Part shown: in pieces, positions 3,441-35,292 of the stretch
Layout: every line of letters starts with the position of its first letter
Position numbering within the stretch: the stretch's first letter is position 1
IMG/VR virus record: IMGVR_UViG_3300044971_001115
Coordinates: 1-55,345 of that record
Reading direction: 5' to 3' (one strand)
DNA length: 55,345 nucleotides
DNA from: a virus
Lineage: Duplodnaviria > Caudoviricetes
Notes under the pieces: model-generated
The model's input: the letters and a program-made list of their open reading frames with translations, nothing else
Databases searched by the model: none
What the model was told of the DNA's origin: nothing
Position numbers and translations under genes: made by a program

Positions 3441-4844
3441 ATGGGAAAAAGTATTATGGAGCAGCTCTCACTCCTTCCAGTTGAAGAGCGTGAAGAAGCT
3501 CTAGCAGGTATGGACCCAGAGGTCTTGCTTTGGGACTGGTCCGTTTGGGGCCGTCCAGAGCAGCAAGCTCCATCAGGCGACTGGAACATTTGGCTTGTAC
3601 TAGCAGGTCGTGGTTTCGGTAAGACTCGTCTCGCGTCTGAGTGGGTTCGTGAAGAAGCCAAATACACTAATACTGGCCAACGTCGATTCGGACTTGTTGC
3701 CCGTACTGCCGCAGACGTTCGTGACGTTATCGTTGAAGGTGAGTCGGGAATCCTAAACGTTACCCCTCCTTCCGAGCGTCCACTCTATGAGCCTTCGAAG
3801 CGTCGCCTCACCTGGCCAAACGGGAACACAGCCACACTCTTTACCGCTGACGAACCAGATGGTTTGCGTGGTCCTCAGTTCACCCACGCCTGGGGCGATG
3901 AGATTGCAGCCTGGAGACAGACTCCTGATGCCGCAGGTATGACCGCGTTCGACAACTTACGTGTTGGTACCCGTCTTGGTGCCCACCCAAAGATCCTTGT
4001 TACCACCACCCCGAAGCGTACTCCGCTTCTCTACAAACTTATTGAAGAGTCCATGAAGAGCGAGATTGTAAAAATCACTCGTGGTTCGACCATGGACAAC
4101 GCTGGAAACCTTTCTGGTGCCTATCTAGATACCATGCTCGGCGTTTACGAAGGAACCTCGCTTGCCCGTCAGGAACTTTACGGTGAAATGCTTGAAGCCA
4201 TGGAAGGTGCTCTGTGGACCGAGGAAATGATCGAGCGTGGACGCGAACGTAGTATGCCTCAGTTCACCCCACTACGCTGTATCGGCGTTGACCCTTCGGT
4301 TGCCGAAAACCCTAAAGATGAGTGTGGAATCGTTGTTGTTGGCTCAACTGCCGAGCACGACCTCTACAAGCGTCAAGCCTGGGTCCTCGAAGACGCCTCC
4401 ATCTTAGGTTCTCCGACCGTTTGGGCCCAAAAAGTGGTAGAAATGGCCCGTAAATGGGGCTGTCCAGTGATTGCTGAAGTAAACCAGGGTGGTGCTCTGG
4501 TCCGAAATGCCATTAATACCATCGATCCGACCATTAAAGTGCTAGAAGTTCACTCAAAACAGGGAAAACAGCTCCGTGCAGAGCCAATTACCCTCGCATA
4601 TGAGCAAAATCGTGTCCACCACGTCCACTACCTACCTGATTTAGAGACTCAGATGATTTCTTGGGTTCCAGGTGAGGGAAAGTCCCCTGACCGCGTCGAC
4701 GCATTGGTTCACGCCCTCACTGCCCTACTAATTAAGCCCCCTCTAGGCTTTTCAGGCGGTAAAATCCGTGCAAAGAGCCTTGCAGACCGTAAAATCCCTG
4801 GAATTAACCCATCTAGGGCCGGAGGGATCTTCAGAATCCGATGA
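3441..4844 (+). CDS. terL: Terminase large subunit
   Basis: Walker A AGRGFGKT, LRGPQF, Walker B AWGDE, motif III VTTTP, nuclease IGVDP and SPDRVDALV. Confidence 0.96.
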   Translation: MGKSIMEQLSLLPVEEREEALAGMDPEVLLWDWSVWGRPEQQAPSGDWNIWLVLAGRGFGKTRLASEWVREEAKYTNTGQRRFGLVARTAADVRDVIVEGESGILNVTPPSERPLYEPSKRRLTWPNGNTATLFTADEPDGLRGPQFTHAWGDEIAAWRQTPDAAGMTAFDNLRVGTRLGAHPKILVTTTPKRTPLLYKLIEESMKSEIVKITRGSTMDNAGNLSGAYLDTMLGVYEGTSLARQELYGEMLEAMEGALWTEEMIERGRERSMPQFTPLRCIGVDPSVAENPKDECGIVVVGSTAEHDLYKRQAWVLEDASILGSPTVWAQKVVEMARKWGCPVIAEVNQGGALVRNAINTIDPTIKVLEVHSKQGKQLRAEPITLAYEQNRVHHVHYLPDLETQMISWVPGEGKSPDRVDALVHALTALLIKPPLGFSGGKIRAKSLADRKIPGINPSRAGGIFRIR

Positions 4845-5497: not shown

Positions 5498-7273
5498 TTG
5501 GGAATTTTTAAGAAAAACTCGGAGCCAGAAAAGCAGCGTAGATCCGCTCCTGGCGTTCGTGCGACTGCTCCAAGAACTGCAACCTCGGTAGCCCCTGGTA
5601 TCTCTGTAGACTCTTTTGGTTTGGTCTACGCTGAGCCTGCTGCCTTTGGCACTCCACGTGCTCTTACTGCTGCTGCAGCCCAACTTAAGATTGGTGACAA
5701 GGGCGAGGCCGAACTCTTTAAAGCTCGCCGCCAGTCTGCCTCCTCTAGCTGGCAGACCGAAGCCTGGGAATACTACGACTCAATTGGTGAAGTCAAGTAC
5801 GCCTTCAACCTTGTTGCGTCTGTTGTGTCTCGCATCCGTCTTTATGCTGCAATTGTTGAAGACCCAGCCGAAGCACCAATTCCAGTAGACAAGTCTTCTA
5901 AGATTGACCCGCAGCTTGGAGCCGCAGCTCAGCGTGCCCTTGCTCGCCTAGACAGTGCTTACGGAGGTCAGGCAGGTCTTCTCAAGGACGCTGCTCTGAA
6001 CTTGCAAGTTACTGGTGAATGCCACCTAGTCCAGATTCCAGAGCGAATTGGAACCGGATTGCCAGAGACCTGGGATATCCGTTCTGTTGACGAACTTCAG
6101 ATTGATGCAAAAGGTAACTTCGTTATCCAGCCACGTCGCGAAGTTGGTGGCGGTGTCCCTTCAGCCATGTCCGCTGGTAAGGGTGCAATCCGTCTACCAG
6201 GTGATGCTTTTATTGGCCGTATTTGGAAGGCCCACCCACGCTACTCACAAGAGGCTGACAGCTCGCTACGCGGCCTTTTGGACCTGTGTGCGGAATTGCT
6301 CCTACTGAACCGTACCTTCCGTGCCACGGCCCGTTCTCGCCTCAATGCGGGTGCTTTGTACCTGCCTGATGGTCTTTCGGTTGCAGCTAGCCCAGACCCA
6401 GACTATCCTTACGACGAGGATGGCAACTACAACGAGCAGTATAACCCTGAAGAGGCTGCTGACGACTTCGAAGACCAGCTCATCGACGCGATGACCACTC
6501 CGATTAAGGACGAGGACTCGGCGTCTGCTGTTGTTCCACTTATCATCCGTGGTCCTGCTGAACTTGGCGACAAGATTAAGCAGTTTAAGTTCGAGCGTTC
6601 ATTCGACGCGTCTCTTGTTCAGCGTGCTGACCGCGTGCTTGAGCGAATCATGCAGGGTCTTGATGTCCCTAAGGACATCGTTTCCGGTCTAGCCAACGTT
6701 AAGTACTCAAACGCACTTCAGATTGACGAGTCTCTTTACAAGGCCCACATCGAACCTCTGATGCTTCTGATTGTAGATGCGTTTACTGTTGTCTACCTAC
6801 GCCCTTACCTAATCGCTAACGGCTACCCAGAGGCTGACGTTCGCCGTCTTCACATCTGGTACGACCCAAGCCAGGTTGCTACTCGTAACGACCGTGCGAC
6901 AGATGCAGACGCTGGCTTCGACAAGATGGCTGTTTCTTACGACACATGGCGTCGTGCTCACGGCTTCTCGGACCAGGACGCTCCAACCCCTCAGGAGCTT
7001 GCACTTCGTCTAATCATCAACAAGGGTGCCATCACTCCAGAGCTAACCGAGGCTATGCTTTCGGCCGTAGCTCCAGAGATCATGGAACTTGTTAAAGACG
7101 TGTCTCAGGCAAACAACCCAGCTCCAATGCCTGGTAATATTGAAGATATACTTCAGGGAGGCCAGCCCGGTGCTGCTCCTGGAGCTCCTGTAGCTCCACC
7201 AGTTCCGCTGGCTGAACCTACACCTGCAGCTCCAGCTGCTCCACCTGTTCCACTAGCCGAGCCAGAGGTTTAA
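5498..7273 (+). CDS. Portal protein
   Basis: 591 aa after terL; WQTEAWEYYDSIGEVKY and IWKAHPR..ADS motifs resembling actinophage portals; TTG start with AGGAG RBS; Pro/Ala tail containing APPVPLAEP twice. Confidence 0.88.
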   Translation: MGIFKKNSEPEKQRRSAPGVRATAPRTATSVAPGISVDSFGLVYAEPAAFGTPRALTAAAAQLKIGDKGEAELFKARRQSASSSWQTEAWEYYDSIGEVKYAFNLVASVVSRIRLYAAIVEDPAEAPIPVDKSSKIDPQLGAAAQRALARLDSAYGGQAGLLKDAALNLQVTGECHLVQIPERIGTGLPETWDIRSVDELQIDAKGNFVIQPRREVGGGVPSAMSAGKGAIRLPGDAFIGRIWKAHPRYSQEADSSLRGLLDLCAELLLLNRTFRATARSRLNAGALYLPDGLSVAASPDPDYPYDEDGNYNEQYNPEEAADDFEDQLIDAMTTPIKDEDSASAVVPLIIRGPAELGDKIKQFKFERSFDASLVQRADRVLERIMQGLDVPKDIVSGLANVKYSNALQIDESLYKAHIEPLMLLIVDAFTVVYLRPYLIANGYPEADVRRLHIWYDPSQVATRNDRATDADAGFDKMAVSYDTWRRAHGFSDQDAPTPQELALRLIINKGAITPELTEAMLSAVAPEIMELVKDVSQANNPAPMPGNIEDILQGGQPGAAPGAPVAPPVPLAEPTPAAPAAPPVPLAEPEV

Positions 7274-7276
7274 TAG

Positions 7277-7729
7277 ATGCACGAGAATCATTTAGAACTA
7301 GCAGAGAAACTTTCTCACCTACTTGGTGACGTGGTCACTGTTGCTCACATTACTCAGGGCTACCACTGGAACGTAAAAGGTATCGAGTTCTCTCAGCTGC
7401 ACGAATTCTTTGCAGACATCTACGGAGACATCGACGGTTCAATTGACCCGCTAGCCGAGAACATTCGTAAGATTGGCTACGACAGCCCTTACCTACTTCA
7501 GGACTTCATCGAGCTTGGCTGCATTGACGAGCGTCGCGTAACTGGCAATGCTCAGGAGATGCTTACTTCTCTAGCTCGAATCAATGCCACCGTTATTAAT
7601 TGTCTAACCGGGGCGTTCCACTCTGCCGACGAGTGCGACGAACAGGGTATCGCTGATTTCCTAGCAGGCCGCATTGACATGCACAAGAAGTGGCAGTGGC
7701 AGATCGAATCTAGTCTCGGAATTCGATAA
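7277..7729 (+). CDS. dps: Dps-family mini-ferritin
   Basis: YHWNVKGIEFSQLHEFF, DPLAENIRKIG and HKKWQW motifs; ferroxidase H/H/D/E residues present. Confidence 0.92.
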   Translation: MHENHLELAEKLSHLLGDVVTVAHITQGYHWNVKGIEFSQLHEFFADIYGDIDGSIDPLAENIRKIGYDSPYLLQDFIELGCIDERRVTGNAQEMLTSLARINATVINCLTGAFHSADECDEQGIADFLAGRIDMHKKWQWQIESSLGIR

Positions 7730-7732: not shown

Positions 7733-10700
7733 ATGTCAGAATACCTAAGAAAAATCTTGGGTGCAGGCAAGACTCCCTTAATTAAATCCCAACCCCTTGC
7801 CGCACTTACCGCAGATGCTGGACCAGACATTCCCGGCGGCGAAGGTGCCAACAAAGGCTTCTGGCGTAAACAGCTACGCGACCCTAGAACTAAACAGTTC
7901 ATCCCTATGGATGCGTTTATCATATGTACGATAAATGTTCCAGGTGTAGGGATTTTCAAAGCTACCGGCCAGTTCAAGGGTAATAAAAAAATTGGCATCG
8001 CCACTATTCGAGTTGCTGGAAACAAAAATGTTCCAGACGGCGACTACCAGGTACCGCACACAGATGTTCTAGGTGCTGCCGAGGGTATGATCAAGCAGAA
8101 GGATCTAGACCGCGTACTAGATAAAGCTGACGGCGTCATTGACGACCCTAAGAATATTCTTCCGCCAGGAACCCCTATGGCTGGCGAATCGGTCAAAGCC
8201 CCCGTAGCTCTAAAAAAGGCAATCGACGGCGAAGAAGCTTTATCTAAAATCAAAGGCGAGGCCGCACTTGTTGCCAAAGAGGACGGACGTTTCCCTATTG
8301 CTCGTGGAGCAGGGGATATCAAAACCGCGGCTAAGCGTCAATACGCTGGAGTATTTGAGGCTTTAAAGAAAGAGCAGCCTGACCTAGTAAAAGACTTTAA
8401 CTCATTTGATGAGTTCTGGGCGTATGCCGACAAGAACATTGCTATCGACGCGTCTCAGCGTTGGGCAGACTCGGTAGACGAGATTCCCGAACTTACCAAA
8501 GCCACTAACCGAATCTATGCTCGTGATGTTCTTGGTATGGAACCAGACGGCCTAATCACTTTCTACCGTAACTCAATCAACCACCACAATGACCCAAACA
8601 AAGCCGCGGCCGGCTACATTTCGCTTGACCAGCGTATGGCCTGGAACTACAACTCCGACAAAGAGCAGTCTGGCCAGGACGGCCGCTATATCGTTAGAGT
8701 TAAGCCAGATGAGGTACTAGGTCTTCTAGGCTACAGCCGAGTTCCAGATGAGTATGGCGTTGTAGTTGGTATGGACGTCACGTCTCAGGAGGGTCGCTAC
8801 GAACGAGTAGGCGATCTAGCCTGGTCACCTCTAAACCCACTGATGGATCCGACTAAGACTCAGATGAGCGGCGGTGGCGACAGCTGGTTCCGTCAGTTCC
8901 GTCCAGCGTCTAGCTTTGACTTTCCTGTCTTAGACTCTAAGCCGTTTGAAGCTGGCGAAAGTTGGTCAGACTTCTATAAGCAGTTTAATATGCAGAAGGG
9001 CGACATCCCCAAGAAGTATGACGAACTGTTCGGAGAGGGTGCTTTTGATCAGGACTTCCCCGATAGCAGGGGAGTACCTAACTACAGTCGATTCGTAAAT
9101 AATGCTTTCACCGAAAAAGGTGGAAAGTACGCTTTTGATCCTCTATATCTTTCAACCGAGTTCCCGATGTCTAGTGCGACGTCGATGGAGCCTAACAAAA
9201 ATGACGAGCTCGATCTCGGTCTCAAGTTCCTATCCACCATTCAGGAACTTTCTGGCATCCCATTTATGGTCCACCGCAGCCACGATAAGAGCGACCCTCG
9301 CCTAAAGGTAAAAGAAGCAAAGACCAAAAAACCTAAGGCTGTAAAAGAGGCAGCAAAAGAAGTAGAGACTCCGGTTGGTTCCGTTGTTAAGGACCTAACA
9401 GGGTTCACTAAGGTCTCTGACCAGCTCGGCTCTAACAAGGGTGGACTATACAAAGACCCGATTACTGGTCAGCAGTTCTATGTTAAATTTGGCGACAAAG
9501 CTCGAATCGAGAACGAAGCCCTTGCGTCTGACATCTACAAACTAGCGGGAATCAACGCTACCGACCTACAAATCGGAACATTAGACGGCAAAGATGTAAT
9601 CTACTCGCCTTGGATAGAGGGCACGTCTAAAGATGTAAAAGATAAGATAATCCACCTCGCATCCACTGTAAACGAGAGAGAAACAAAAACTGATCCTAAA
9701 ATAAAAGCTTCTGTAGAAGAGGCTCAGCGGGGATTTGCTGTAGATGCTTGGTTAGCTAACTGGGACGCTGTAGGGTCTGCCTATGACAATCTAGTTTTTG
9801 ACAAAGATGGAAAGCCGCTCCGAGTAGATCCAGGCGGTGCTCTTCTTTATCGTGCTCGTGGTGAACTTAAGGGCGACGCGTTTGGTGATGAAGTAACAGA
9901 GCTGGACACCTTCACGCAATACTCTGGAACCCCCCTTGCCGGGAACACTGCTCTAGAACTATTTAGAAGTATGCCTAGACGCAGGAAATTTGAATCCGCC
10001 AAGATAGTCCACAAGATCACTCCGGAGCAGATCGAGCAACTGGTAGATAGCCGTATCTCTGATCCAGAAACTAGAAAAGTTCTTAAAGACCGTCTAATTG
10101 CTCGACGTCAGAACATTATTGAACGCTTCTCTCTAGAGGGTCTTGTCTCAGACAAGCAAGAAAAAGACGGAGACTCTTACGTAGACAAGGTCTACTATGA
10201 CGACATTCGGCGTTCTGAAGAACTTATGGCACCTGGCGGCCCTGGCGGTCCTAGAATCTCTACTGATGCCGGAGATACAAGCGGATATCTAGACCGATAC
10301 TTTGATGACAACGCTCCTCTTGTTGACGAGGTAGATGGTAATGATATTAAAGAAATTCTTCAGGCCACTGTAGTAAAAGATATGGTCAATACCGTCAACA
10401 AAGAAGAGGGGAACGATTCTTCTGCCAACGAGGTATTTAGAAGAGGCCTATACGGCACTTTAGTTGCTCAGCACAACATTGTCTACTCTGAACTTAAGTC
10501 TGAAGATTCTGACTTTGCTAATCAGTTTCCTACTTTTAACTCTTACTTTAAGTATGTTACAGAAGAGCTGGCGATCAGCGACAAACTCCTAGTTGGAGAT
10601 GTTAATAATAGCCTAGCCAGTGACTATAAAAAAGAAGCAGAGCACGCTCAGTCGTGGTCTACCTACTTTAGCCCGGAAAAAATGGCTCTTCAGAAGAAGA

Positions 10701-16700: not shown

Positions 16701-18712
16701 AAGATGTAGTCCCTGAAGCCCCTAAGGTAGAAGAAAACCCATACCTAGCAAAAAGTAGAGGCCCTATCCGTAATGAAAGGGATGCTGCTTATAGAGCCGG
16801 AATGGAAAAAGAGGCAAAATCAAAGCCAATAGTTTCTAGGTTGATGGAGCTTTTGAATTTAAATGTATCTGAAGTAACAGACATTCAGGATCAAATCAAT
16901 AAGGGCGACTGGAAACATGAAAACGGATCATACTCCGAGGCTAAATCCGGAGCCTTCTCGAAATACAACAAAATTCTTGTTGAATTTGGTGAATATGAGC
17001 CTAGTAGTTCTACATACCTAAAGAACGGCGAGACTGGTCTAGCCACTTGGTTGTCCGACGAACTAGGAATGGATATAAAAGATCTTGAGATTAAACAAAG
17101 AACATTAAAATCAGGATCAACTAGACCTACTCAAAAATTTGGATCACCAAAAACATTCAATTCAAGCCTCCGACCGCTACTAAACGGTGCAGACTATTAC
17201 TACGTAGATACAGATGCCCTGGCTTTCTATATTTACCCAAACGAGGACCTAAAAAAGGCCGTGCTAGAGCAGATAAAAAACGGTGACCTAACCTGGACAG
17301 GCGGAAAAGCTGGTAAAAGTGCTATGTCCGTATCTGTAGATAAGCCTAAGTACGCATTTAAATTGGAAACTAGTCCAGATCGTAAAACACGCACCTGGGT
17401 GTTCGACGGCACCGAAGAAAATAAGAAAGAATTTAAAGAGTATATAAAGAAAACATACAAGCAAGATCAGGGGTCTAAGGTAAAAGCCCCTAAGGGCTCT
17501 GACTTCAGTGCAATTGGCTATTCCAAGATGGACTCGATTAAAGACTTCCTAGATCCTGCAAACGGTGCCGTCCTTTCTATTGGAGATACAACAACTAATG
17601 AAGAAGGAAAGTCTGTCACTGTTGATGAGGACTTCTTCTTACCGAATAACTTTATAACCTACCAAGAACCTAGAGCTGTCCTCCGTAGGTTCGGATCTCT
17701 TGCAATCCCCCCGACTGACCAGGAGTCGCTCGACCCTGCAGAAGTGGCAGAGATGAAGTTCGACTGGATAGAAAAGAATAAAAGCAGGTTCATATATGCC
17801 AATTCAGCAAAAATCGAGGAGCTGGCACTAAAAAAGGCTGCTGAACTTGGGTACACCAGCCCTAGAGACAGAACTCTATACACGGAAGGAACCGTGCAGT
17901 CTGTGCTCAACTATGTGAATGCAGATAATAAAATTGTAGTTAGTGATTTCCTAGACTACGTATATAAAAACTACCCAGAGAAATATAAAAATACTGAAAG
18001 ATACGAACAACTTAAGAAATATTCAGAATTTGACTCTAAGTTAGATGCATATGCTAAGGATGTTGCAAAAGCAAACGTTACCGTAGCAATCGACGGTTTA
18101 GACCTGATTAGTGTATTAGAAGACGGACGACTTAAGAATCAGTTTGAAACCGGGACTAGTGGCGGGTCATATTTTCCAGATATAAGAATAAAAAACGAAT
18201 TAAATATCTCTGGCACCCCGATAGACGCCTCAAATGAAAAAAGACCTATTTTTGGACACCTAACTACATTTGAAGACTCAAAACTTCCTAAAGATCCTAG
18301 ATCTAAGAAGAACATCTTGCACGTGGCTAGCTCTTTCACTAAAGGATACGGATCCTTTAAAGTAATTATGAAATCTTCAGTTAAAGAAAGAACTACATTT
18401 ACAGCTGGAGACTCAATGGGCGGTAGTCAAATTGCTCAGGTGGTATCTCCAAATGTTGACCGAAAAGCTATGAAACTAGCCGGCTTTGTGGCAGACCCAT
18501 ATACTGCCCTAAACTACACTCCCGAGTCGGTAGCAGGGTACTATGTAGAAGCCCAGATCCACGGCGGAGTTAGTCTCTCCGACATCGAGAGAATCATTTA
18601 TGTAGGCGAGGACTCTGACGAGATATTACAACTTGTGAAAGCTAAGCTAGGAGAGCTAGGTCTAAGTATCCCACTTGAAATTCTTAAATTAGCTCAGGTA
18701 TCGAAGGAATAA
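7733..18712 (+). CDS. Giant polyvalent protein, 3659 aa: multiple ADP-ribosyltransferase domains, HipA/PI3K-like kinase, ParB/Srx domains, C-terminal DUF3626-like domain
   Basis: Three VIP2/Alt-like R-S-ExE domains (VFRG..REDEVVLPR; VYRG..FLSAS..EKEVIF; LYRG..FSSTT..EKEVLLP); Arr-like FYHAT..LKVGD; kinase FYVK..NE..WLANWD..DN..VDPGG; ParB EGHHR; KNQFETGTS..EAQIHGG. Confidence 0.88.
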   Translation: MSEYLRKILGAGKTPLIKSQPLAALTADAGPDIPGGEGANKGFWRKQLRDPRTKQFIPMDAFIICTINVPGVGIFKATGQFKGNKKIGIATIRVAGNKNVPDGDYQVPHTDVLGAAEGMIKQKDLDRVLDKADGVIDDPKNILPPGTPMAGESVKAPVALKKAIDGEEALSKIKGEAALVAKEDGRFPIARGAGDIKTAAKRQYAGVFEALKKEQPDLVKDFNSFDEFWAYADKNIAIDASQRWADSVDEIPELTKATNRIYARDVLGMEPDGLITFYRNSINHHNDPNKAAAGYISLDQRMAWNYNSDKEQSGQDGRYIVRVKPDEVLGLLGYSRVPDEYGVVVGMDVTSQEGRYERVGDLAWSPLNPLMDPTKTQMSGGGDSWFRQFRPASSFDFPVLDSKPFEAGESWSDFYKQFNMQKGDIPKKYDELFGEGAFDQDFPDSRGVPNYSRFVNNAFTEKGGKYAFDPLYLSTEFPMSSATSMEPNKNDELDLGLKFLSTIQELSGIPFMVHRSHDKSDPRLKVKEAKTKKPKAVKEAAKEVETPVGSVVKDLTGFTKVSDQLGSNKGGLYKDPITGQQFYVKFGDKARIENEALASDIYKLAGINATDLQIGTLDGKDVIYSPWIEGTSKDVKDKIIHLASTVNERETKTDPKIKASVEEAQRGFAVDAWLANWDAVGSAYDNLVFDKDGKPLRVDPGGALLYRARGELKGDAFGDEVTELDTFTQYSGTPLAGNTALELFRSMPRRRKFESAKIVHKITPEQIEQLVDSRISDPETRKVLKDRLIARRQNIIERFSLEGLVSDKQEKDGDSYVDKVYYDDIRRSEELMAPGGPGGPRISTDAGDTSGYLDRYFDDNAPLVDEVDGNDIKEILQATVVKDMVNTVNKEEGNDSSANEVFRRGLYGTLVAQHNIVYSELKSEDSDFANQFPTFNSYFKYVTEELAISDKLLVGDVNNSLASDYKKEAEHAQSWSTYFSPEKMALQKKINRKYAEKILKLNPDGKIRIYRNANSQVFKYDTPEAALAGYWSFDRNFAWAFNSNQTERSANRSSYAGRYSALISVNEITGIIGMMHVTDYETYKTDNVLDEMPLSILPNEVLRGVLSDQKYHGRTRDLTLQSGATPRVVQTMAAGTTQWRNNRTAPYVLFNPVPFNLDELKSKAKEKGIDLDNVIDPSNGKPRSLERFLTELPDGRHQIDLFGASDDNSYDLGIYGTDRMSDFQKLMYLQTQLDVPLIVNNFAKDADAHKVETDQFYGAADPMVQKLEPARIQKFITVPEPTLDPGAVLSEADLSAVKKKKDYLDTALDVSKQFTAGDNQAPFNMLDLAAKGRADVVNDYRQQIQDIYDVANAKVSADKEAVATKAADYIQSKIKSAKDSIFTYEQSLKNDPTAKDWAPGAIKDQEEIIAELESGYDRTTNPGHEPVKTRITDLADYYLQTYDPEGSIREKLFSGASEQEVVSALENTPLWKERKAAFEAAGGDTANEWDLVFSDNDSALAAVKSAFAKDSRLSDEENETNRKSALEELRNGGLPVDAPATEPVVETPAVEAPEVKTEALGWDSLGGPTEGRGESELLDNLVDGDFLDVEAIKDGDVPRNFDLDDLIEEQAKSVRYYKGAGFRYMNNLLRLGQSDEPDDLMDKLNKSIADVDELIDTYGDVYTETTVFRGMIDMGRFKETDPPTIVEILESAKPGDILSDPGYTAATTNRSIAIREYGLGRGLSDEVTINASQEQWVPTVFFAIKLPEGSKALGLPLDTNYGREDEVVLPRGAQLKINAIRRVPQVDADGEETGRFNYFVDAENIPSEESKEEPATGKQKNQLIRLYNNVESTEDKEAIFEAVKDENLTAARAKELLEADYSPKPAPEVPKEMAERFFNPKYGAGDSKTDVAMLPIDEVEKYIVQDRAGKDSWGASSDATIEKITEELKNGGSIRDPLVIDFDDENNWGALAEGHHRLIAARKAGLKYVPVRILRAQGRNVSFKNKGKGAPLTFSAGPDKFGYVPGAAHASLFDQFAEKKPETKVKKLGNEPNVKASDEKVDMLISKISRLKIEDVEKLKEAIKNGTLTNELADELSSKAPGSLDILNDPVMLKAILKKHVGDSVTADDMQDLVDGKRTQDGYGFYHATNRELKVGDIIRPTESFAASASHGGLSFDIKKEMSPEEWEKKRAFAKLDGGQGVKGLSFYIARAAEMKGEPDGMGYFYRVKPVGTLSAFPSLEPEWVTDEGWEIVHVVGRASINDTRVDDRIHFDEDTDTLWHDNPEEYNSPDYGKRKTDDIIDTSSGDMPVLNQIIKTESTNEVGKGNTTLSADFDYVSYRKFDSSYLDEDEIEAITEYRAGGYAQINELLRTARLRNSEVPEEKVQKWIDTLDSAIDTWGSPMGGSVRNVVYRGQVLSGGSAPEVGEADMTEVINRLSPGMILEDRGFLSASTSPTIAYKEFGPGLYERGAVKGDTVFWAINVPEDVKGLFSPQDIGIAAEKEVIFHRNSKLAIKGVRKIVGQDDHARYFIEADMLAPESELIPKTREESSESSPELAETLAEIAKNREEPESTEPPKSAENGPSIWGRINLRNIKDSFKYIADDPEFSDLVKQYSGSDEDIDKLKEILTEKGLNKKNEVSDPYSKFTSAAEKEYKKIDPNLDTETGIAPASPYGGIEDSGLGTTGYVDSSSVLDALGKDGWTFNNDDSARAAVKKRISEEGFTSPVVLIYDRGAKTFSLKNLEADSDRIIAAQDLKRSTPVVVEMGGMSSNPRFFGAMYTPKNLKPTEAIKEDYPDVSGIPDLPTPSRSKEEKDAIEAYQKWGFYDLKTHMDSPYGHPDKSKEEREDLDKVVDNLDKLTSTEPIPDGTTLYRGVDLSNDPEWYEYFSELKAGDRLLTPTRFSSTTLDPIIADEYSVPLSRIKTDPENTKSVVIKITTGEGATGAAFENDKTLFSREKEVLLPLTANIEVTKVEKDSDGVIRVEGVYSKTPKVEKQIEEGGGFTLTPDPEDVVPEAPKVEENPYLAKSRGPIRNERDAAYRAGMEKEAKSKPIVSRLMELLNLNVSEVTDIQDQINKGDWKHENGSYSEAKSGAFSKYNKILVEFGEYEPSSSTYLKNGETGLATWLSDELGMDIKDLEIKQRTLKSGSTRPTQKFGSPKTFNSSLRPLLNGADYYYVDTDALAFYIYPNEDLKKAVLEQIKNGDLTWTGGKAGKSAMSVSVDKPKYAFKLETSPDRKTRTWVFDGTEENKKEFKEYIKKTYKQDQGSKVKAPKGSDFSAIGYSKMDSIKDFLDPANGAVLSIGDTTTNEEGKSVTVDEDFFLPNNFITYQEPRAVLRRFGSLAIPPTDQESLDPAEVAEMKFDWIEKNKSRFIYANSAKIEELALKKAAELGYTSPRDRTLYTEGTVQSVLNYVNADNKIVVSDFLDYVYKNYPEKYKNTERYEQLKKYSEFDSKLDAYAKDVAKANVTVAIDGLDLISVLEDGRLKNQFETGTSGGSYFPDIRIKNELNISGTPIDASNEKRPIFGHLTTFEDSKLPKDPRSKKNILHVASSFTKGYGSFKVIMKSSVKERTTFTAGDSMGGSQIAQVVSPNVDRKAMKLAGFVADPYTALNYTPESVAGYYVEAQIHGGVSLSDIERIIYVGEDSDEILQLVKAKLGELGLSIPLEILKLAQVSKE

Positions 18713-18714
18713 AA

Positions 18715-18909
18715 ATGTACGAAATTGGAAAACCAATTTTCAAAAAATCCAGCGGATCCGTCATTATTTTTGACGGACTCGATAAGGATAAAATGCCTCT
18801 TGCTCACATCAAAGACTTCAAAGGCGAAGAGTTTCAAGTTATGTACCTGGACTCGATTCTCGCACGCGGTTACTGGGAAGAGATTATTAATACCGAATCT
18901 GACGAGTAA
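18715..18909 (+). CDS. Small protein, candidate inhibitor/immunity partner of the upstream C-terminal domain
   Basis: 64 aa, 2 nt after the giant gene's stop, AAGGA RBS; ends LDSILARGYWEE. Function inferred from position only. Confidence 0.65.
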   Translation: MYEIGKPIFKKSSGSVIIFDGLDKDKMPLAHIKDFKGEEFQVMYLDSILARGYWEEIINTESDE

Positions 18910-18911
18910 GG

Positions 18912-18917
18912 TACAAT
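18912..18917 (+). promoter_or_regulatory. -10 element for a probable leaderless transcript
   Basis: ggTACAAT ends 6 nt before the ATG at 18924; no Shine-Dalgarno. Confidence 0.6.
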
Positions 18918-18923
18918 AAGATA

Positions 18924-20870
18924 ATGGCAGAAGAAAAACCACAAAAATCAACTCTCGGCGATCGCATGAGCGACGTCGGTGGTATGCGTGTATACAGGGA
19001 CGGCAAATGGATCCCTCTTGAGCAGCTCTCTAAGAAACCTAAAGAAGAGCCTAAACCTAAGGTCCTAGTTAAGGACGACTCTGCCCCTAAAAAGAAACCA
19101 ATAACGGCGTCTAGTTACGCTCAAACAGTACTCCGCTCATCAGGCGGATTTGGTGCCCCTGCAGAGGTCTACGACCCTAAAAACGTACGAAAGGCCGTCA
19201 AAGCAGCGGGCCACCTAGTTCCTGAGGAACAAGACCTAGCCGATGCCCTACTGGAGATTGTTGCCAAGCACGGAAAGTTCAACGCCGACAATACCGGCGT
19301 CTGGGCTGGCTATGACTCTGCTGAAAAGAATGCAGAGAACGCTAAGATTGGCGTCAAGTGCGGCAACTGCGTATTTTTCAATTCACCTAACGGCTGCTCG
19401 ATTATTGACTCTGAAGTAGAAGAGGGCGGACTCTGCCGTTTCGCAGTTCTACCAGATGGCTCGGTTACTCCTCCTGCACTCACCGCTGATGCAGATTACG
19501 GAGACGAGTGCCCTCCTGCAACTCAGGACATCGTTCTAAACATCAATAACCGACAGAAAGCTATTGACAATGTCGGCTATGGCCCGCTAAACCCAGAGGA
19601 ACCTAACGACGAGTTCTGGGGAGAAAAGGCAGATCGCTGGAACATCGACCCAGTAGAGGCCAAGAAGAGCATCTGCGGCAACTGCGTCTTCTTTGACCGT
19701 CGCCCGAAGACCCTAGACTGCATTGAGACCGGACTTGCAGAAGGCGGCTCCGGAGAGCAGAGTGCCTGGGACTCAATTGACCAGGCTGAGCTTGGTTACT
19801 GCACCGCTCTAGACTTTAAGTGTGCTGCTAGCCGTACCTGTAACGCGTGGGCAGCGGGCGGCCCTATCACTGAAGACGCAGTCAAAGCTGGCGGCTACGG
19901 TGTAGGAGAGGACATTGATGCCCAGGTTCACAAATTCTTCAACAAGCCTGTCTACGATCTACCAAAAGGCCTAAAGAACTACACCGAAGAGGCTGACGAA
20001 GACTATGAATATGACGTACGTTTGGACGACCTAATCCCAACTCAGCGTACCGTTAACATGCGTCGCGTTGAAGACGTAATGGGCTCTGATAAGCCAATCG
20101 TAGTTTGGATCAACGAAGACGGGGAGCCAGAAATTGTTGACGGCCACCACCGTTCAGTTGCCTATCGACTAGATGGCAGCGACACCATCCGAGCCAAGGC
20201 CTACAAGACGCCTGGATTTGTGGCTACTGCTGGATCAAAGCCTGCTCCAAAGAAAGACCGCATCAAAGGCTCCGACAAGAACAAAAAAGGTTCTGCAGCA
20301 TCTGGCCGCAAGATCACGTTCTCTAAGGCCGTCGAGACATCTCTAAAGGAAAAGGTCAAGTCCCACAATGAGAGCGTCTCTGCTGATGGTAAAAAAGTAA
20401 CTCTTTCTATGCTCAAGGCAGTCTACCGCCGTGGTGCGGGTGCTTTCTCTACCAGCCACCGCCCAGACCAGAACCGCAACTCCTGGGCTATGGGCCGCGT
20501 TAACGCTTACCTACGTCTAGTTAAGTCTGGCAAGCCTGACAACGCTAAGTACACCACCGACAACGACCTACTCCCTAAGTCTCACGCAAGATCTACCAGA
20601 GCTTCAATAGTTGCGTCTGCTGCTTTCGAGGATGACTACGAGTCCGAGCTGTCTGTAGTGCTATTGCCAGAAACAGAGTATACTAGTAAAGAGCAAGCGA
20701 TTCTTTCTCTAGCCGAGTTTTCTGGCGTTGGCTATGAAATCATGCCAGCACTAAATGCTGCATGGGCCAGAGCCGAATTGGCCGGAGAAAACTCTTTTGA
20801 GAGAGCCAAAGACCTTGCTACATCTCTGCACGAAAGCCGAGATGCCGAACTACTTCCTAAGGAGTTTTAA
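18924..20870 (+). CDS. Multidomain head-associated protein: two Cys-rich (HiPIP-like) modules, a ParB/Srx domain and a DUF5824-like basic domain
   Basis: KCGNCVFF..C..GLCRF; ICGNCVFF..YC..KC..TCNAW; LIPTQ..IVDGHHR; LKAVYRRGAGAF..HRP..WAMGRVNAYL. Confidence 0.78.
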   Translation: MAEEKPQKSTLGDRMSDVGGMRVYRDGKWIPLEQLSKKPKEEPKPKVLVKDDSAPKKKPITASSYAQTVLRSSGGFGAPAEVYDPKNVRKAVKAAGHLVPEEQDLADALLEIVAKHGKFNADNTGVWAGYDSAEKNAENAKIGVKCGNCVFFNSPNGCSIIDSEVEEGGLCRFAVLPDGSVTPPALTADADYGDECPPATQDIVLNINNRQKAIDNVGYGPLNPEEPNDEFWGEKADRWNIDPVEAKKSICGNCVFFDRRPKTLDCIETGLAEGGSGEQSAWDSIDQAELGYCTALDFKCAASRTCNAWAAGGPITEDAVKAGGYGVGEDIDAQVHKFFNKPVYDLPKGLKNYTEEADEDYEYDVRLDDLIPTQRTVNMRRVEDVMGSDKPIVVWINEDGEPEIVDGHHRSVAYRLDGSDTIRAKAYKTPGFVATAGSKPAPKKDRIKGSDKNKKGSAASGRKITFSKAVETSLKEKVKSHNESVSADGKKVTLSMLKAVYRRGAGAFSTSHRPDQNRNSWAMGRVNAYLRLVKSGKPDNAKYTTDNDLLPKSHARSTRASIVASAAFEDDYESELSVVLLPETEYTSKEQAILSLAEFSGVGYEIMPALNAAWARAELAGENSFERAKDLATSLHESRDAELLPKEF

Positions 20871-21691
20871 TGTCGAATCTAGAATTCACCTCTAAATTTC
20901 ACAAGCGGGTGTCAATGATGTTTGACTCCGAAAAAGCTAGTGAAGTTATAGACGAGTTTGACAATCTAGACCCTAGAGAAGCAAACATCTTCTACCGTGC
21001 ATTTACAGCCGAACCGGGTACACCCGAGCACCTACACTCTGTTACACGAGTTAAGGCACTTGTTGCTTCTGGTTTTGTTTCCAACGAGCTAGCAAGTATC
21101 ACCAATGATGGTGCGATTAGCTCTGCTCGCGAAGATGCCGAGCGTTCATACATGCTTTCCCGAGAGGCCCTACTTGACGTCATCTCTGACCAAAAAGTCA
21201 GCAATGATGTGCTTACTAATCCTTACGATGAAGATGGACTTCTATCTCGCATGGTTATCCGCGGGAACACTAAAGAAGAGATTCTCAACTACCTGAATAG
21301 CAAACTATTCTTCCAGGCAGCCAAAGAACTAGCCGAGGCTGGCCCAGATGAAGAAACCACACTAGCCGGTCAGGAAGCTATTCTTCGCTTTACTGGTCTC
21401 ATGGAGGCTATTGACAACCTAGAGGATCCAGTTGAGCCAGCTGACTTTAAGGCTAATGCTAAACAGTTGGTTGCTTCGTATGACGAAGACGGCACCATTG
21501 CGTCCATGATTGACAGCGGAGCGTCCTCTGACGAAATTCTAGAAGCTTTCTCGCAGAATGAAAAATGGTCGGATGACCTATATAACTACATCACTCGCTT
21601 AGAAGTGAATATTCGAACTGCAGCCCAGAAACAAAAGTGGGGCAATACAGAAGTAGTTTTGTATGCTCTAAAAGACCTAGACAGTCTATAG
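20870..21691 (+). CDS. Acidic helical protein with two YDEDG repeats
   Basis: TAATG overlap with the upstream gene; PYDEDGLL..G.TKEEIL and SYDEDGTI..GASSDEIL. Confidence 0.75.
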   Translation: MSNLEFTSKFHKRVSMMFDSEKASEVIDEFDNLDPREANIFYRAFTAEPGTPEHLHSVTRVKALVASGFVSNELASITNDGAISSAREDAERSYMLSREALLDVISDQKVSNDVLTNPYDEDGLLSRMVIRGNTKEEILNYLNSKLFFQAAKELAEAGPDEETTLAGQEAILRFTGLMEAIDNLEDPVEPADFKANAKQLVASYDEDGTIASMIDSGASSDEILEAFSQNEKWSDDLYNYITRLEVNIRTAAQKQKWGNTEVVLYALKDLDSL

Positions 21692-21718
21692 CTCCGAATC
21701 ATACCCGAAAAACAACTG

Positions 21719-21724
21719 TAAAAT
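21719..21724 (+). promoter_or_regulatory. -10 element upstream of the 2642-aa gene
   Basis: TAAAAT within GTAAAATTACTA (21718-21729), a 12-mer repeated exactly at 35175-35186 upstream of the major capsid gene. Confidence 0.55.
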
Positions 21725-21781
21725 TACTAGTAAGGAATCTTACTAGATTATTGCCGATTTGCTCCTATAAGAAGGACCTCG

Positions 21782-24700
21782 ATGTTAGAGAAACTCACTG
21801 CCCTCCTAGCCGCATTTAACGACGGTGCCAACAAAGGCTTCTGGCGTTTCCAGTGGCGTGACCGTCTTGGCCGTTGGGCCGAGATGGGCCGTGGTGTTCT
21901 TGGTAAGCTTCGTCTAAAAGATGGCTCGATCGTCTCTGTTCGTGGTGTGTTCGTCGGTGGTACCGAGAACCCTGGCTTTGGTCGCGTTCTAGTTGAAGGT
22001 CAGTCTGACAAAGGCATTCCAGACGGTATCTATAAGTTTGCTTCTGGTAACGGTGAAACATTTGAAGGTCTTATTCCTGAAGAAGACCTAATCCGTCAGG
22101 GCCTACTTCCTGAGGGAGGTGCCGCTAAGAAGGACATTTTTGGAAACTCTGTTGGCGAGCGTCTAGACAAAGACATCCAGGACTTAGAAACAATCAGTCG
22201 CGAAGACATTACCGACGAAGACCGCAAGCTTGCCACTGAAACTCCTGACGAGCGTCAGAAGGCCATCATCGAGGAAGAGCGTGCAAAGTCTCCTGTTGCT
22301 AAACTTCCTGCTGGTACAGAGTCTGACCCGGACCAGCTTGCCAAGGCTCTAGAAGATGCTGGTGTTACCCCTAAGGCCGAAACTCCTCCTAGTCCAAAGG
22401 TCGACCGTGCTACTGATGGTTGGCTTCGCGGAGCTCGGGAAGAGGGCGAGCCAATCTACTGGATGTCTTACAACCAGGGCACTGGAAAGCACAGCCTAAA
22501 CGAGGGTCACATCATTGATGGCTACGTTTATAAAGGTAAATACAACCAGTTCACTGACCAAGGCCTAGAGGGTGTTGGCAGTGTTGACGACCTAATTGCA
22601 ACTAGAAAAAATAAAAATTCTGGACTTGTAGACATTTATCGCGGAAACATTCCTGCTATCGAAGACGAGAATGGTAAGTTCCGTAAGGCAGAAACTAGCG
22701 ACATCTTTAGGATTGAACGCGAGCAGGATGCTGCTAAAGCTGCTCAGCCGCCTACTCCTCCTCCATCAGACAAGGTAGCCCCGGCTGCCCCTCCAGCAGG
22801 GCCTCCTTCAGATGGCGGCGAGAAGTTCCTACCTGCCCCTCCAGAGCCAGGTGCTCCTGCAGAGCCAAGCAAGGCTGAGATTCCACCTGCCCCTAGTGCA
22901 CTTGATGGTTTGGACCCTTACACCCGTGGCGTCGTATCCAACATTATTGACGGGGCTCAGGGTCAGACCCCCAAACAAATCAACAAAAGCCTGAAGAAGC
23001 TTCACGACCTGGCAAGCAAGCCGGACTCAAACCGAGACGGCCTAAAGGTCGCTATCGACGAGCTCTCTAAACTTGTAACAGACAAAGGTGGAGTTCCATT
23101 TGTTCCAGGCGGAGAAGACGAAAACAACTTCGGGTTCAAAGAAACTACTGACGACTTTGACAAGCAGAATGGCCAGCAACGCTGGGAGAAGGACTACGAA
23201 GGTGGTCAGACTCTTCTAGAGGTTGTCAAGGGTGACGACGGCACGTACGAAGCTATTGCATATAGTGGAAACGACAACGGTGCCTGGGCACGAGAAGACC
23301 TACTACCTGTTACAGACGGTAAGGGCATCTTTAAGGAAGCTGACAAGCTAATCAATGACAACATTGAAGCTGAAGCTAAAAACGATGCTCTAGTTGAAAA
23401 AGCTATCCAGGACGCAATGGACGGCAAGCCAGTTAGTGCTGACGAGATTATTAAGAAGAGTTCCCCTACTCCTGTAGGCCGAGGCGGCTTCAACTTCGAA
23501 GAAGATGAAGAGCAGCCAGCTACTGCACCTAAGACTTCTAAATCTAAGAAGAAGCCTGAAACAGAAACTACTTCTCCAGCGACTGCAAAAGGCCCTGTTA
23601 AGCAGGAACCTATCACTCCTGAAGAGCTTGATGCTCTAGCACCGGCCGAGTCCTATGAAAAGTTCTTTGGCTTCTTACCTAGCGTAGAGCAGACTCGAAT
23701 TCTAAACTCTATCATCGTTGCTAAAAAGAAGACAGCCGTTCGTGCAGGTGCAGGTGCAGGTAAGACTACAACCTATATCGGTCTTTGTAAAGCTCTTATG
23801 GAGCTTGACCCTAATGCTCGCATTGCTCTACTACAGCTTAACCGCACTAACGCTGACGAGGCTGCAAAGTTAGTTCCATCGAACACAATTTCAAACACTA
23901 TTGATGCATATTTTGGCCGTCCGCACATCGTAAATATGGCTGCAGGCAAGACCGGAACAATGCGTGGCTCGGCAAATGACCCGCATGTTACTCGTTACAT
24001 GTCTAGGGAGTCTTGGCACATTTCTGGTGCAAAAGACCTAGGCAATCACTTCCTAATGGATGAAATGAACATTGGTGGAGAGAACTACGACATTAGCAAG
24101 GTTGCGGGTCTAGTTAGTAATGCTGTAGAGCTTTTCTGCCGTAGTACTGATCAAAAAATTGGCCCTCAGCATTTTAACGTTAAGACTAAAGCTAAAAAAG
24201 CTACAAAGACTGAAAAAGCAGTTGAGTCTGAAGATGTAGATATTCCAGACGAGCAGATGAAGAAGCTTCTTAGCTATGCCAATGCTTACTGGGAAGATCT
24301 AAATCACATACCAATTTGGGATGAGCGAGTGTCTTTCACAAAGAAAGATGGAACCCCTGGTAAGAAGTTTGCTAAGGGTGTTACAGCAATTAATCCTACT
24401 CACGCCTTCAAGATGTGGGCACTGACCGATCCTGATCTATCGAAGTTAAAGGCTGGCGATGGCAAGCCAATTACCCACCTGCTTCTAGACGAGGCTCAGG
24501 ACACTAACGCTGTATTTGAAAAAGTTATTAAGGACAACATAGATCGAGGCACTGCTCCGCTTATCGCAATGGTTGGTGACCGTGCTCAGTCTATCTACAA
24601 GTTCCGTGGTAGCCGTGATGCCCTAACTACCTTTGCAGAGAAACGAGCTGGTGCAAGCCTAACTCTCACTACTACTCGACGCTTTGGTGAAGACCTACTT

Positions 24701-30438: not shown

Positions 30439-33400
30439 ATGGCTGAATATTTAGGAAGTATCGGTAAACTGTCTCTGTTTGCCGTAGGCAACCACAGCGT
30501 TATCGTGGACACTGACCTCAACATGGTTACTGAGTTCGGTGCACTTTCTAACATTCAAAAAAGTGGATGGGCATTAGAAGAGTTTGTATCTGATGCAGCT
30601 CACGATCTGGCCTCTGCCGCTCTCTACGACACTGCTAACCCTATAATTGCATCAGCTGGTCGTATGTACACTATTCCAGACGGAGTTAAGAGCGAGGCCA
30701 AAAAGGCCCTGGAGTGGCGTAAAGAAGAGAAGCGTGGCGGAACTCCTGTCGGCATGAACACTGCTCGCACTCTCGCTAAGGGTGGACAGATCGGTATCGA
30801 GAAGGTACGCCACATTGCCAAGTATTTCCCTCGTCACGAAGTTGACAAGAAGGGTAAGGGCTGGAAGCCTGGCCAAGACAACTTCCCAAGCAACGGTCGT
30901 ATCGCGTGGGCACTCTGGGGTGGCGATGCCGCGTGGCGTTGGGCCTCTGACATTGTTGAAAGAGAAAACAAAAAGTCCATGACCGCTGGTGGATTTGTTG
31001 AGTTTGAGTCTTATGATGACGCATACTCGGACACTAATGCTTTCAAAGCAGCCCACGAATTAGATACCAACTACGGTCCAGAGTTCCTAGCACGCGTTCG
31101 CCTAGACGGCTCTGGAATCGATAGGCTTTACAAGATCGAGATTGACGGACATGTTTATGTCTGGGACGACTGCTCCTGGGACGACCTCAGCCATGTTGAT
31201 GGCGACATCTACACCTACGACTCCTCGCTTGACGACCCATATGATCAGGTTGAAAAAACCCACGTAATGATCGACCCTGACTCTGCAGTAATTATCTCTG
31301 CCATGATGCAAGAAGCCCCGTTCAAGAGCGTTCAGATCAACGAGATCGATTACGAAGAGTCCATGATGATGTCTAATGCCATGGCTGACCTAGACTACGA
31401 GATTCTAGACCGTGCCATTATGGCCGCTGGTGTTGCTGCAGTGGACCCGAGCAAGGATGGCAACTACACCCCTGAAGAGCGTGGCGAAAAGGCTGACAAG
31501 CAGCCACGCGATGCTGGAGGAAAGTTTGCTAAGGCCGGTAACAGAGTTGTAGTTGGTGGCGATACTAAGCGTGGCATTGGAACTATTACCAAGGTCGACA
31601 ACAAGAGCGGCAAAGTTGACGTAAAACTTGACGATGGTCGAGACATCACCGTTGACTCAAAGCTAACCAAAGCTTTCAAGCCAGGCGAAGAGCCTGCCCC
31701 TATGGCCCCTGCAATGGAGCAGCCTGTACCTAAAAAGAAGGTAGAGCCTGTCAGCACCGAAGGCATTCTAGGCGAACCTCGCAAGAAGACTAACGAACCT
31801 AAAGCAGAGCTATCCGAATCACCTGCACCTCTTACAAAGCCAGAGATTGACGAAATGTTCGTCGAATGGGCCGCGTCTGTGGTCTCTGCTCGTGCGGCTT
31901 CTAGCAAAGCTGTTACCGCTGCTGCCCCTGCACCAGCCACCGAAGAACCTCTCACCCCGAAAACAAGTGACGTAACTCCTAAGTACATTGCTATCGTATC
32001 TCCTGATGATCCTCAGGCCGTTATGGACCTAGTTGCTCTAGTTCCTGCCACAGCCACCACCACGGAGCCACTTATGTACATCCGTAAGGATGGCAAGTGG
32101 GTTGCAGACGAGCAAACACTTAAGGATCTAAAGTCAGCAACGCCTCCTCCTGTTGTGGTACTAGACACTCAGGAACTTCTTAACGACATCCTCAAGCAGG
32201 TTGACAAGATTGAGAACGTTGCTAGCACCCCTAGCAAAGAGAAGCCAACCGCTGAGACTCAGGCTGCAGCTTCAATCTACGAACACCTAATCAACTTCTG
32301 GTCTGGCTCTGCTCAGGCGATGGTTGCTGCTGGTGGCCTAGACCGCAACAGGGGCAACGCTGAAGAGCTACGCCAATACTGGACCCGCGGTAAAGGTGCT
32401 GCCAAGATTCGCTGGGGGACCCCTGGCGACTGGACTCGTTGCGTTCGTCAACTTTCAAAATACATGGGTCCTCGTGCGAAGGGCTACTGCCAGCTTCGCC
32501 ACAAGGAAGCAACTGGTGTTTACACTGGTAGCCGTTTCAACCCTGGTAAGGATGACAGTAGAAGTCTTACTACGTTCAATGACCGTTTTGAAGATGCAAT
32601 GATTGAAAAGTCATACTACGCTGCTGAAGTTGCATCGATCAAGGAACGTATGGGACTAACAGCCGCGGCACTTCCTATCGCGTCTGGTGCTAAGTTCACT
32701 ATCCCTCTTCTTATTCCAGAGGACCTCGAGTCTGGAGATGGACGTAAGTTTAAATCAGAGTCAATCGATGTACGTGACCTACCTCTTCCGCTTCTGTGGC
32801 AGATCAAGACTGGCGAAGGCCACATGGGCTCTGTTGTAGTTGGTCGCATTGACCACATGGAGCGTATCCCTAGCGGAATTGGCAATGCTTATGGCGTTTT
32901 CGACACCGGACCGTATGGCCGTGAAGCTGAGCGTCTAGTCCGTAATGGGTTTATCCGTGGCGTATCTGCAGACCTAGACCAATTCGAGGCTAAAGAAGTT
33001 GACTCGGAAAACGCTGAAGATAGCGAAGAAGTTAGCAAGCAAAAACTTACCATAAATCACGCACGTGTAATGGCTGCTACAATTGTAGCTAAGCCCGCAT
33101 TTCAAGAGTGTTCAATCATTATTACCGATGATGGAGACACTGGTATCCAGGAGGATCGAGTGATTCCTGCAGATGGAATTTACGAAGAGTCTGTCGAAAC
33201 TTTCGCACCCGCCGAAGCATTAACTGCTTCTGGCTTTCTAGACTCTGCCATTCCTGTGACCCCACCGGAGCACTGGTTCCACGACCCTAAGCTAACGAAG
33301 CCAACCCCTATTACGGTTGAGCCAGATGGCCGTATCTATGGACACATTGCTGCATGGCACGTAAACCACATTGGTATGCCTCGCTCGACTCGCCCGCCTC

Positions 33401-35181: not shown

Positions 35182-35292
35182 TACTAATAGGTAGAGTGCC
35201 TTGCAACTTATGTTTGTGTAGTCCCTCGGCCTTGATTGTTCACCATGAATGGTAAAACATTCATCAAACCAAATACTGGCCTAGGAGGTACA

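Follow-up and report, generated by a model that had tools for sequence, protein, structure and literature searches.

The viral record IMGVR_UViG_3300044971_001115 (Duplodnaviria; Caudoviricetes) was analyzed over its whole length of 55,345 nucleotides, referred to below as the window. The window is the complete IMG/VR record, has an estimated completeness of 32% and a G+C content of 47%, and holds the head-tail gene block of an uncultured actinobacterial phage. The large terminase (TerL) is encoded at 3441-4844, and the portal protein, a candidate docking partner in what follows, at 5498-7273 on the + strand (phrog_776, E = 8e-104). The block continues on the + strand with giant polyvalent protein 1 (P0001; 7733-18712, 3659 aa), giant polyvalent protein 2 (P0002; 21782-29710, 2642 aa), a protease-scaffold polyprotein (P0003; 30439-35166, 1575 aa) whose prohead protease region spans aa ~750-1144, and the major capsid protein (MCP; 35236-37338); tail genes come after the MCP. 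The subject of this study is a module of ~105 aa at the N-termini of both giants, which we call the header, and its relation to a short motif that the polyprotein carries twice.

The 24-nt sequence GGTGCCAACAAAGGCTTCTGGCGT occurs exactly twice in the window, at 7844-7867 in giant 1 and at 21824-21847 in giant 2, both on the + strand, and two matches to this 24-mer were found in 0 of 100 shuffles. Both copies are exact and encode GANKGFWR near the start of the giants, which are the two largest open reading frames (ORFs) of the window. The repeat and its coordinates had been given in a preliminary description of this DNA and were verified, as was the claim that the two giants have homologous N-terminal domains of ~90 aa. 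A BLASTP comparison of the first 200 residues of the two giants gave 32% identity over 94 aa (E = 1e-9). When the whole giants were compared, the N-terminal segment alone was significant (E = 1e-6), and the next-best segment had an E value of 0.71, which indicates that the remainder of the two proteins is unrelated.

The catalytic cargoes of the two giants, described earlier as unrelated, are indeed different. Besides the N-terminal module, Pfam finds three ADP-ribosyltransferase (ART) stretches, a weak ParB_N-like match and a C-terminal DUF3626 in giant 1, and a UvrD-type helicase (aa 645-1307) in giant 2. By eye, a zincin-like HELQH (HExxH) motif was also seen near the C-terminus of giant 2 (29200-29350, + strand), where Pfam gave no match at E ≤ 1; to judge from these few residues, it may belong to an MPTase-type processing peptidase, as is common in polyvalent proteins. 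Both giants are nearly free of cysteine (1 of 3659 residues in giant 1 and 2 of 2642 in giant 2, compared with 11 cysteines in a neighboring 648-aa protein), which would fit an unfolded passage through the tail.

The 24-nt identity is an island, and the DNA flanks have diverged between the two copies. Given the same residues and the codon usage of the window, the probability that all eight codons are identical is ~9e-4, and beyond the 24-nt stretch the same codon is used at 10 of the 24 identical residues of the shared domain. The identity thus exceeds slightly what protein conservation predicts. A DNA-level element was considered as its cause and rejected, because synonymous sites vary in related genes and paralogs differ: the corresponding stretch of 45 related genes deviates from the 24-mer of the window at 0-7 bases, and the paralog pairs within L004 and within L010 differ from each other there. 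Chance or a very short conversion tract is possible.

The header module and its family

The header was located at 7802-8116 in giant 1 and at 21818-22102 in giant 2, on the + strand in both cases. It consists of a conserved arm of ~25 aa, with the consensus ..ALTA.. / GANKGFWR / Q.R(D)..G.[FW]..MG, and then a predicted SH3/KOW-like barrel. Word-based searches with the two giant N-termini found 5 and 16 longer proteins, all of which matched at their extreme N-terminus. An alignment of 14 N-termini was used as a profile (A1), in which the residues G, A, N, G, W, R, Q, D, M, and G are invariant, nearly all of them in the arm. The modules of giants 1 and 2 match this profile with E values of 1.1e-41 and 1.0e-35, respectively. 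When profile A1 was searched against 1.84 billion representative proteins, 326 protein clusters matched at E ≤ 1e-3 and 161 at E ≤ 1e-10.

The family was then sampled with 164 proteins, comprising the best 150 of the 326 clusters, the earlier matches and the two giants of the window. In 157 of these proteins the start of the module is among the first 40 residues. In the other seven it is at residues ~153-187, behind another conserved extension of ~180 aa, which has no counterpart within the window. The header proteins range from 94 to 5432 aa (median 1275), and their median cysteine fraction is 0. The cargo was assessed with Pfam on every fourth member of up to 2800 aa (n = 39). ART domains were found in 14 of them, a UvrD helicase in three and a PI3/PI4-kinase-like domain in two, and GNAT, RNase T, EAD9, and ART-PolyVal were found once each.

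The strict motif Q.RD..G.[FWY], put forward in the preliminary description as a docking motif, is present in 135 of the 164 header proteins. It fits the canonical QWRDRLGRW of giant 2 and both polyprotein sites. Giant 1 departs from it: its degenerate form QLRDPRTKQF is one residue longer and has K where G is expected. The RD of the motif is not invariant: in a wider alignment (A6, 37 rows) Q24 and R26 are the sole invariants, and some members read QPRKKW..G.W (QPRKKW..GQW).

No family was found for the header or for the first polyprotein site in Pfam (E ≤ 1), PHROGs (E ≤ 0.01) or NCBIfam (E ≤ 0.01). The Protein Atlas gave no usable match, and a tblastn search of cultured phages with the giant 1 header gave no match. 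A single pattern scan of 185,579 species genomes, which addressed GAN-type headers only, revealed no relative and no prophage copies.

Motif sites in the polyprotein and the predicted fold

Two sites with the motif, QPRDAGGKF (31501-31527) and QPRDAKGKY (34678-34704), had been reported in the protease polyprotein, and their coordinates proved right. According to hhalign and AlphaFold2, site 1 (31465-31728, + strand) comprises a helix, the motif and a predicted five-strand barrel. Site 2, on the same strand, has no barrel, and its motif starts a 161-aa helical, scaffold-like C-terminal domain. Every ORF of 60 aa or more, both in the window and in 44 loci (42 viral-contig loci and two named phages), was scanned for the strict motif. 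It occurred 48 times, 36 times in header proteins and 12 times in polyprotein homologs, and was absent from 244,070 other residues. In 36 polyprotein homologs, the motif is kept at site 1 in 30 and at site 2 in 33, and its 63 occurrences compare with 0.03 in shuffles. Where site 2 is present, its distance to the C-terminus is ~161 residues in nearly every homolog.

The polyprotein is encoded by one ORF in the window and by two or three ORFs in L034, L037, L038, and Actinomycetia phage DSL-LC01. By MCP, the latter is the nearest named phage, at 68% identity; the MCPs of the Microbacterium jumbo phages Cece, A3Wally, Big4, Zooman, and Pumpernickel are ~52% identical. The ORFs are split at about residues 500 and 700. 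DSL-LC01 has a further boundary 21 residues ahead of site 2, so that site 2 there lies near the start of a separate 183-aa ORF and the motif is N-terminal in that protein too. In addition, two tandem repeats of ~50 aa (..DGSFPI.N.EDLKNAI.A.GRAK..) were seen by eye at aa ~1180-1320 of the polyprotein, in the interval between the protease region and site 2.

Alignments of site 1 were compared with the header profile by hhalign, which gave probabilities of 91, 83.5, and 82.8% (E values of 1e-6 to 9e-6, over 36-44 columns). The header hidden Markov model also touches the first protease gene of DSL-LC01 at residues 342-411 (E = 3e-3). Alignments were needed for this comparison, as the single polyprotein sequence matched the header profile over 19 columns at 5.7%. 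Site 1 is probably a full internal copy of the header module. Site 2 reached a probability of 1% against the header profile, and since it shares the short motif alone, homology with the header is not claimed for it.

AlphaFold2 was run on both alignments. In the model for A1, with a predicted local distance difference test (pLDDT) score of 71.5, residues 1-21 are disordered and GANKGF is covered by a short helix; the motif holds two isolated bridges and is followed by five strands (42-95) and a further helix. The model for site 1 (alignment A4, pLDDT 73.8) has the same layout, with a helix, the motif with two bridges and five strands. Foldseek searches of the PDB and BFVD with both models found nothing at E ≤ 1e-3, and the best BFVD row was an 'SH3-like domain protein' at 7.8e-3. 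The neighbors found with VIA-align were Tudor, KOW, and chromo barrels. The best of them reached Z scores of 7.4 (3me9_A, root mean square deviation 2.8, 66 aligned residues) and 7.5 (5oho_B, 3.2, 61 aligned residues), in a tool where Z < 8 is common, and by our count 27 of the 50 top structural neighbors were common to the header and site-1 models. The predicted fold class of the header is likely a small SH3-like barrel, and no function is taken from the fold. A complex prediction of portal (A5) and header (A6) scored 0.00; it was run without controls and carries no weight either way.

It was considered whether the module, as a small KOW/Tudor/SH3-like barrel with a basic arm, binds nucleic acid and tethers proteins to packaged DNA, as phage SPP1 gp7 is said to do. 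Among the structural neighbors are KOW, Tudor, and PWWP domains, including some structures determined with bound DNA, the arm contains conserved Arg residues, and one protein with the wider motif described in the next section matches Pfam KOW at 6e-4. However, the Z scores are in the noise range and a common fold is no evidence of function. Conservation is strongest in the arm and not on the barrel, and at site 2 and in fusions with portal or MuF domains (see below) the motif is found with no barrel. We regard this explanation as very improbable.

The wider HPRG.DGRF motif

In the Gordonia phages Sixama (gp73) and Phendrix (gp66), post-portal proteins start with ..ALTAAF..HPRGADGR[FW]I.K.G.VKW.. 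and continue with a beta-rich stretch. Sixama gp73 shares a domain with residues 544-802 of P0001 (E = 4e-22), and the Gordonia HPRG module matched the site-1 profile with a probability of 76% (E = 2e-5, 59 columns). Viral contigs (loci L052-L123) were scanned with a DNA pattern for HPRG.DGRF, which gave 73 matches in 72 stretches, 72 of the matches being in frame in ORFs of at least 100 aa. The flanks are conserved as well (..TAA..W[DN]P.L before and I.K.G after the motif). After near-duplicates were removed, 51 HPRG-type ORFs were obtained, 42 of which were closed at the 5' end and no shorter than 100 aa. Of these 42, 23 have the motif within their first 110 residues, 11 at residues 111-300 and eight beyond residue 300. 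The median cysteine fraction of the HPRG-type ORFs of at least 300 aa (n = 40) is 0.0005.

Pfam searches on nine HPRG-type ORFs, four of which had no match, placed the motif just behind MuF in L062 (domain 528-636, motif 655) and in L061 (domain 254-301, motif 327). In three others the motif follows a portal domain and precedes a cargo domain: L078 (portal 100-402, motif 516, NUDIX 851), L066 (portal 47-371, motif 597, ddrB-ParB 728) and L108 (Portal_Mu, motif 606, Zeta_toxin 1182). The matches in 39 further HPRG-type ORFs were Zeta_toxin (4), ART-type families (5), Portal_Mu (2), MuF (1), PBECR3 (1), 2H (2), and KOW (1). Judged by domain composition, HPRG.DGRF is a mark of putative phage effector proteins and is repeatedly joined to predicted capsid-anchoring domains. 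A broader pattern, [HQ].R...G[RKQ][FWY], fits giant 2 and both polyprotein sites, and Q.RD..G.[FW] looks like a local variant of it. By the logic of fusions, the portal/MuF pattern suggests that the portal or MuF neighborhood is the place where the free header acts.

The position of HPRG.DGRF at the portal/MuF-cargo junction, where release would be needed, also suits another explanation, namely that the prohead protease, or some other processing enzyme, recognizes or cleaves the motif. Cuts at the motif would release a leader from the giants, the N- and C-terminal parts from the polyprotein, and the cargo from its portal or MuF anchor. Such a site could coexist with targeting, as in T4, where the prohead protease removes the capsid-targeting sequence (CTS), a short peptide. 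The nearly constant distance of site 2 from the C-terminus, its place only 21 residues from where a gene naturally begins in DSL-LC01, and the confinement of the motif to proteins expected in the procapsid alongside the protease are in line with processing. However, site 1 matches none of the split boundaries near residues 500 and 700 in L034, L037, L038, and DSL-LC01. Moreover, the upstream ALTAA.. and GANKGFW are conserved, which is unusual for a discarded leader, and the modeled motif forms bridges against the barrel and is not an exposed loop. Processing as the role of the motif is considered unlikely but is still a live alternative.

The same fusions, with the motif behind portal domains, could also point to an ejection or threading signal at the portal channel, by which the cargo would leave N-terminus first. 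The header would then serve exit and delivery, and not incorporation. The N-terminal position of the module in 157 of the 164 proteins and the extreme depletion of cysteine agree with this explanation, but the scaffold-protease polyprotein carries the motif twice, and in HK97-like assembly the scaffold-protease is normally removed and not ejected. An ejection signal is an improbable, though likewise live, account of the header.

Gene order, known systems and a candidate role for the header

Across the window, the 42 viral-contig loci and the two named phages, the genes are usually arranged as TerL, portal, Dps-like gene, header giant, g648, g273, header giant, polyprotein, and MCP, and 39 of the 42 viral-contig loci have a portal homolog within the stretch examined. 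Among named phages, A3Wally carries the module at the N-terminus of gp85 (1913 aa). In DSL-LC01, which stems from a metagenome study, it is found in a 466-aa protein directly after the portal and also ~206 residues into a 3289-aa giant. In Arthrobacter phage Atuin it starts gp71 (3113 aa, directly post-portal) and gp74, the gene before the protease. An extra header gene (477 to 1311 aa) was observed immediately upstream of TerL, outside the portal-protease interval, in L010, L013, L016, L017, and L018.

The remaining genes of the block in the window are smaller. A Dps/ferritin-like protein of 150 aa is encoded at 7277-7729 on the + strand (Pfam Ferritin, 2e-16; NCBIfam Dps, 7e-11, which is below the cut-off), and most related loci have a homolog at the same place, in the interval between the portal and giant 1. 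A Dps-like gene fixed in a head block is unusual, and the product might be a packaged DNA-protecting or iron-handling protein. The cysteine-rich 648-aa protein (g648; 18924-20870, + strand) has a DUF5824 match (1e-7) and a weak ParB-like stretch. It is kept between the two giants in related loci, and its homologs in DSL-LC01 are annotated as 'high potential iron-sulfur protein'. A 273-aa protein (g273) follows g648 before giant 2, and two small ORFs lie between giant 2 and the polyprotein.

The gene order bears on the question whether the giants are virion proteins at all. If they were not, the header could be a common regulatory or oligomerization domain of cytoplasmic late enzymes. A header protein of DSL-LC01 is annotated as 'cytoplasmic protein', and the packaging of the giants is itself a prediction. 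However, the position of the header genes in the head block is constant across more than 40 loci, the motif is common only to header proteins and the polyprotein, and relatives of the motif stand behind portal and MuF domains. Furthermore, the large post-portal Orf10 of Gordonia phage GMA2, which has no header, was deposited as 'putative structural protein', in a study where, according to passages of PMC4524720, structural genes were identified via virion mass spectrometry. By analogy, Orf10 gives a weak hint that the post-portal gene position encodes virion proteins. A purely cytoplasmic role of the giants appears extremely improbable.

A precedent for this gene position is SPP1 gp7, a member of the MuF family whose gene directly follows the portal gene and which is placed in the procapsid via contact with the portal. 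The header genes have the same post-portal position. Header proteins, for which a portal contact is a candidate, showed no sequence or family match to gp7. Effectors fused to MuF or portal domains are anchored in the capsid by this fusion, as described by Iyer et al. (2017, PMC5512222), Jamet et al. (2017, PMC5576092) and Zhang et al. (2012, PMC3482391). In contrast to these, the giants of the window have a free-standing header, and Pfam gave no match to MuF (PF04233) or a portal domain in either giant at E ≤ 0.01 or in their N-termini at E ≤ 1. Polyvalent proteins, as outlined in the main text of Iyer et al. (2017, PMC5512222), combine many disparate effector domains, are encoded among late virion genes and are predicted to be packaged and injected. 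The giants resemble them in having at least two disparate domains each (ART and DUF3626 in giant 1, UvrD and the HExxH seen by eye in giant 2). They also resemble them in being encoded between the portal and the MCP, an order repeated in related loci.

In T4, an N-terminal packaging signal sends internal proteins into the scaffolding core, according to passages of PMC3012670 and PMC9024508. Like the CTS, which is common to IPI-III and Alt although these injected anti-host proteins differ widely in other respects, the header is a conserved N-terminal element, and a single phage has it on several otherwise unrelated proteins, here the two giants together with the two polyprotein sites. The analogy to the CTS drawn in the preliminary description holds in this respect but not in form. 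The CTS is a peptide of ~10 residues, whereas the header is a ~105-aa module of an arm and a predicted barrel, and the two have no detectable sequence relation.

In P1, the N-terminus of the 250 kDa protein DarB directs its entry into the capsid, and the first 30 residues suffice for a reporter, as stated in the relevant passages of PMC9024508; the P1 authors did not find a consensus among the Dar proteins. The giants are similar to the anti-restriction protein DarB in being giant multi-domain proteins with an N-terminal element. Unlike the Dar proteins, they share one module with hundreds of proteins and with the polyprotein, a distinction made by description and not by sequence comparison. 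No published description of the header module or of the HPRG.DGRF junction motif was found in the literature searched. The main text of Iyer et al. (2017), whose supplement with 40 new domains was outside the search, contains no mention of SH3, KOW or a linker. The searched text of Jamet et al. (2017) contains none of the terms motif, linker, junction or cleav, and the MuF passages of Zhang et al. (2012) do not mention a junction motif or module.

Homologous N-termini, varied cargo in the head block, and a conserved motif that is exclusive to header proteins and the polyprotein are as expected of a head-incorporation address. We propose, with about even confidence and largely by analogy, that the header is a head-incorporation module for injected polyvalent proteins and copies a contact used by the protease-scaffold polyprotein. 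The arm would pack against the small SH3/KOW-like beta-barrel, and the module would be placed at the front of giant multi-enzyme proteins encoded in the head gene block. The polyprotein, itself necessarily inside the procapsid, would bear one full copy (site 1) and one bare motif (site 2). By way of the polyprotein's own contact, which may be on the portal, on the capsid interior or on the core itself, the header would bring the giants into the assembling procapsid. The giants would be retained beside the DNA and pass down the tail into the host cell, in which the ADP-ribosyltransferases, the helicase and the other domains would act early. Packaging, docking, the partner and injection are the parts of this proposal that we infer.

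Several points weigh against head incorporation by a contact shared with the polyprotein. The packaging of the giants is argued from gene position and analogy, and searches of the literature on cultured relatives found no virion proteomics, structural or functional data, or genetics for a module-carrying phage. The fold matches, at Z scores of 7.4-7.5, fall in the common range of the tool, and the models are middling (pLDDT 72-74). The joint occurrence of the header and the polyprotein motif may come from shared ancestry only, and GMA2 has neither header nor motif. The homology of the header to the Gordonia HPRG module is only moderate, with 76% for the site-1 profile but 7 and 0.6% for the header profiles. 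Within the fetched stretches of Sixama and Phendrix, no motif was found in the protease-region genes, which indicates that a contact shared with the polyprotein is not universal; the idea that the header and the polyprotein motif are always present or absent together was weakened by these two phages. Finally, an address would be redundant in the portal and MuF fusions, so the core job of the motif may differ, for example processing or threading.

A broader reading can be offered only tentatively, and we hold it to be doubtful. Tailed phages in general could use the pattern [HQ].R...G[RK][FW] as a 'cargo-start' signal. This short linear motif, in many cases supported by a small barrel, would bind a single conserved site, located at the portal vertex or in the procapsid core. 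It would act in cis behind portal or MuF domains, in trans as a free header, or in the scaffold-protease, and would line proteins up for encapsidation and first-out ejection. If so, the header of the window would be the dialect of freshwater and Microbacterium actinophages, and it would serve as a portable tag with which any protein could be loaded into actinophage capsids.

The entry of giant effectors into the phage head is known for few model phages, through the T4 CTS, the N-terminus of P1 DarB and the MuF/portal fusions. Here, one uncatalogued module heads hundreds of giant effectors in an uncultured freshwater actinophage clade and in cultured Microbacterium and Arthrobacter jumbo phages, and the apparent link to the widespread HPRG.DGRF motif would extend the finding past one clade. 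If the header is a loading handle, it would provide a sequence rule to predict injected proteins in metagenomes, a directly testable docking interaction, and a tag for packaging chosen proteins into actinophage capsids.

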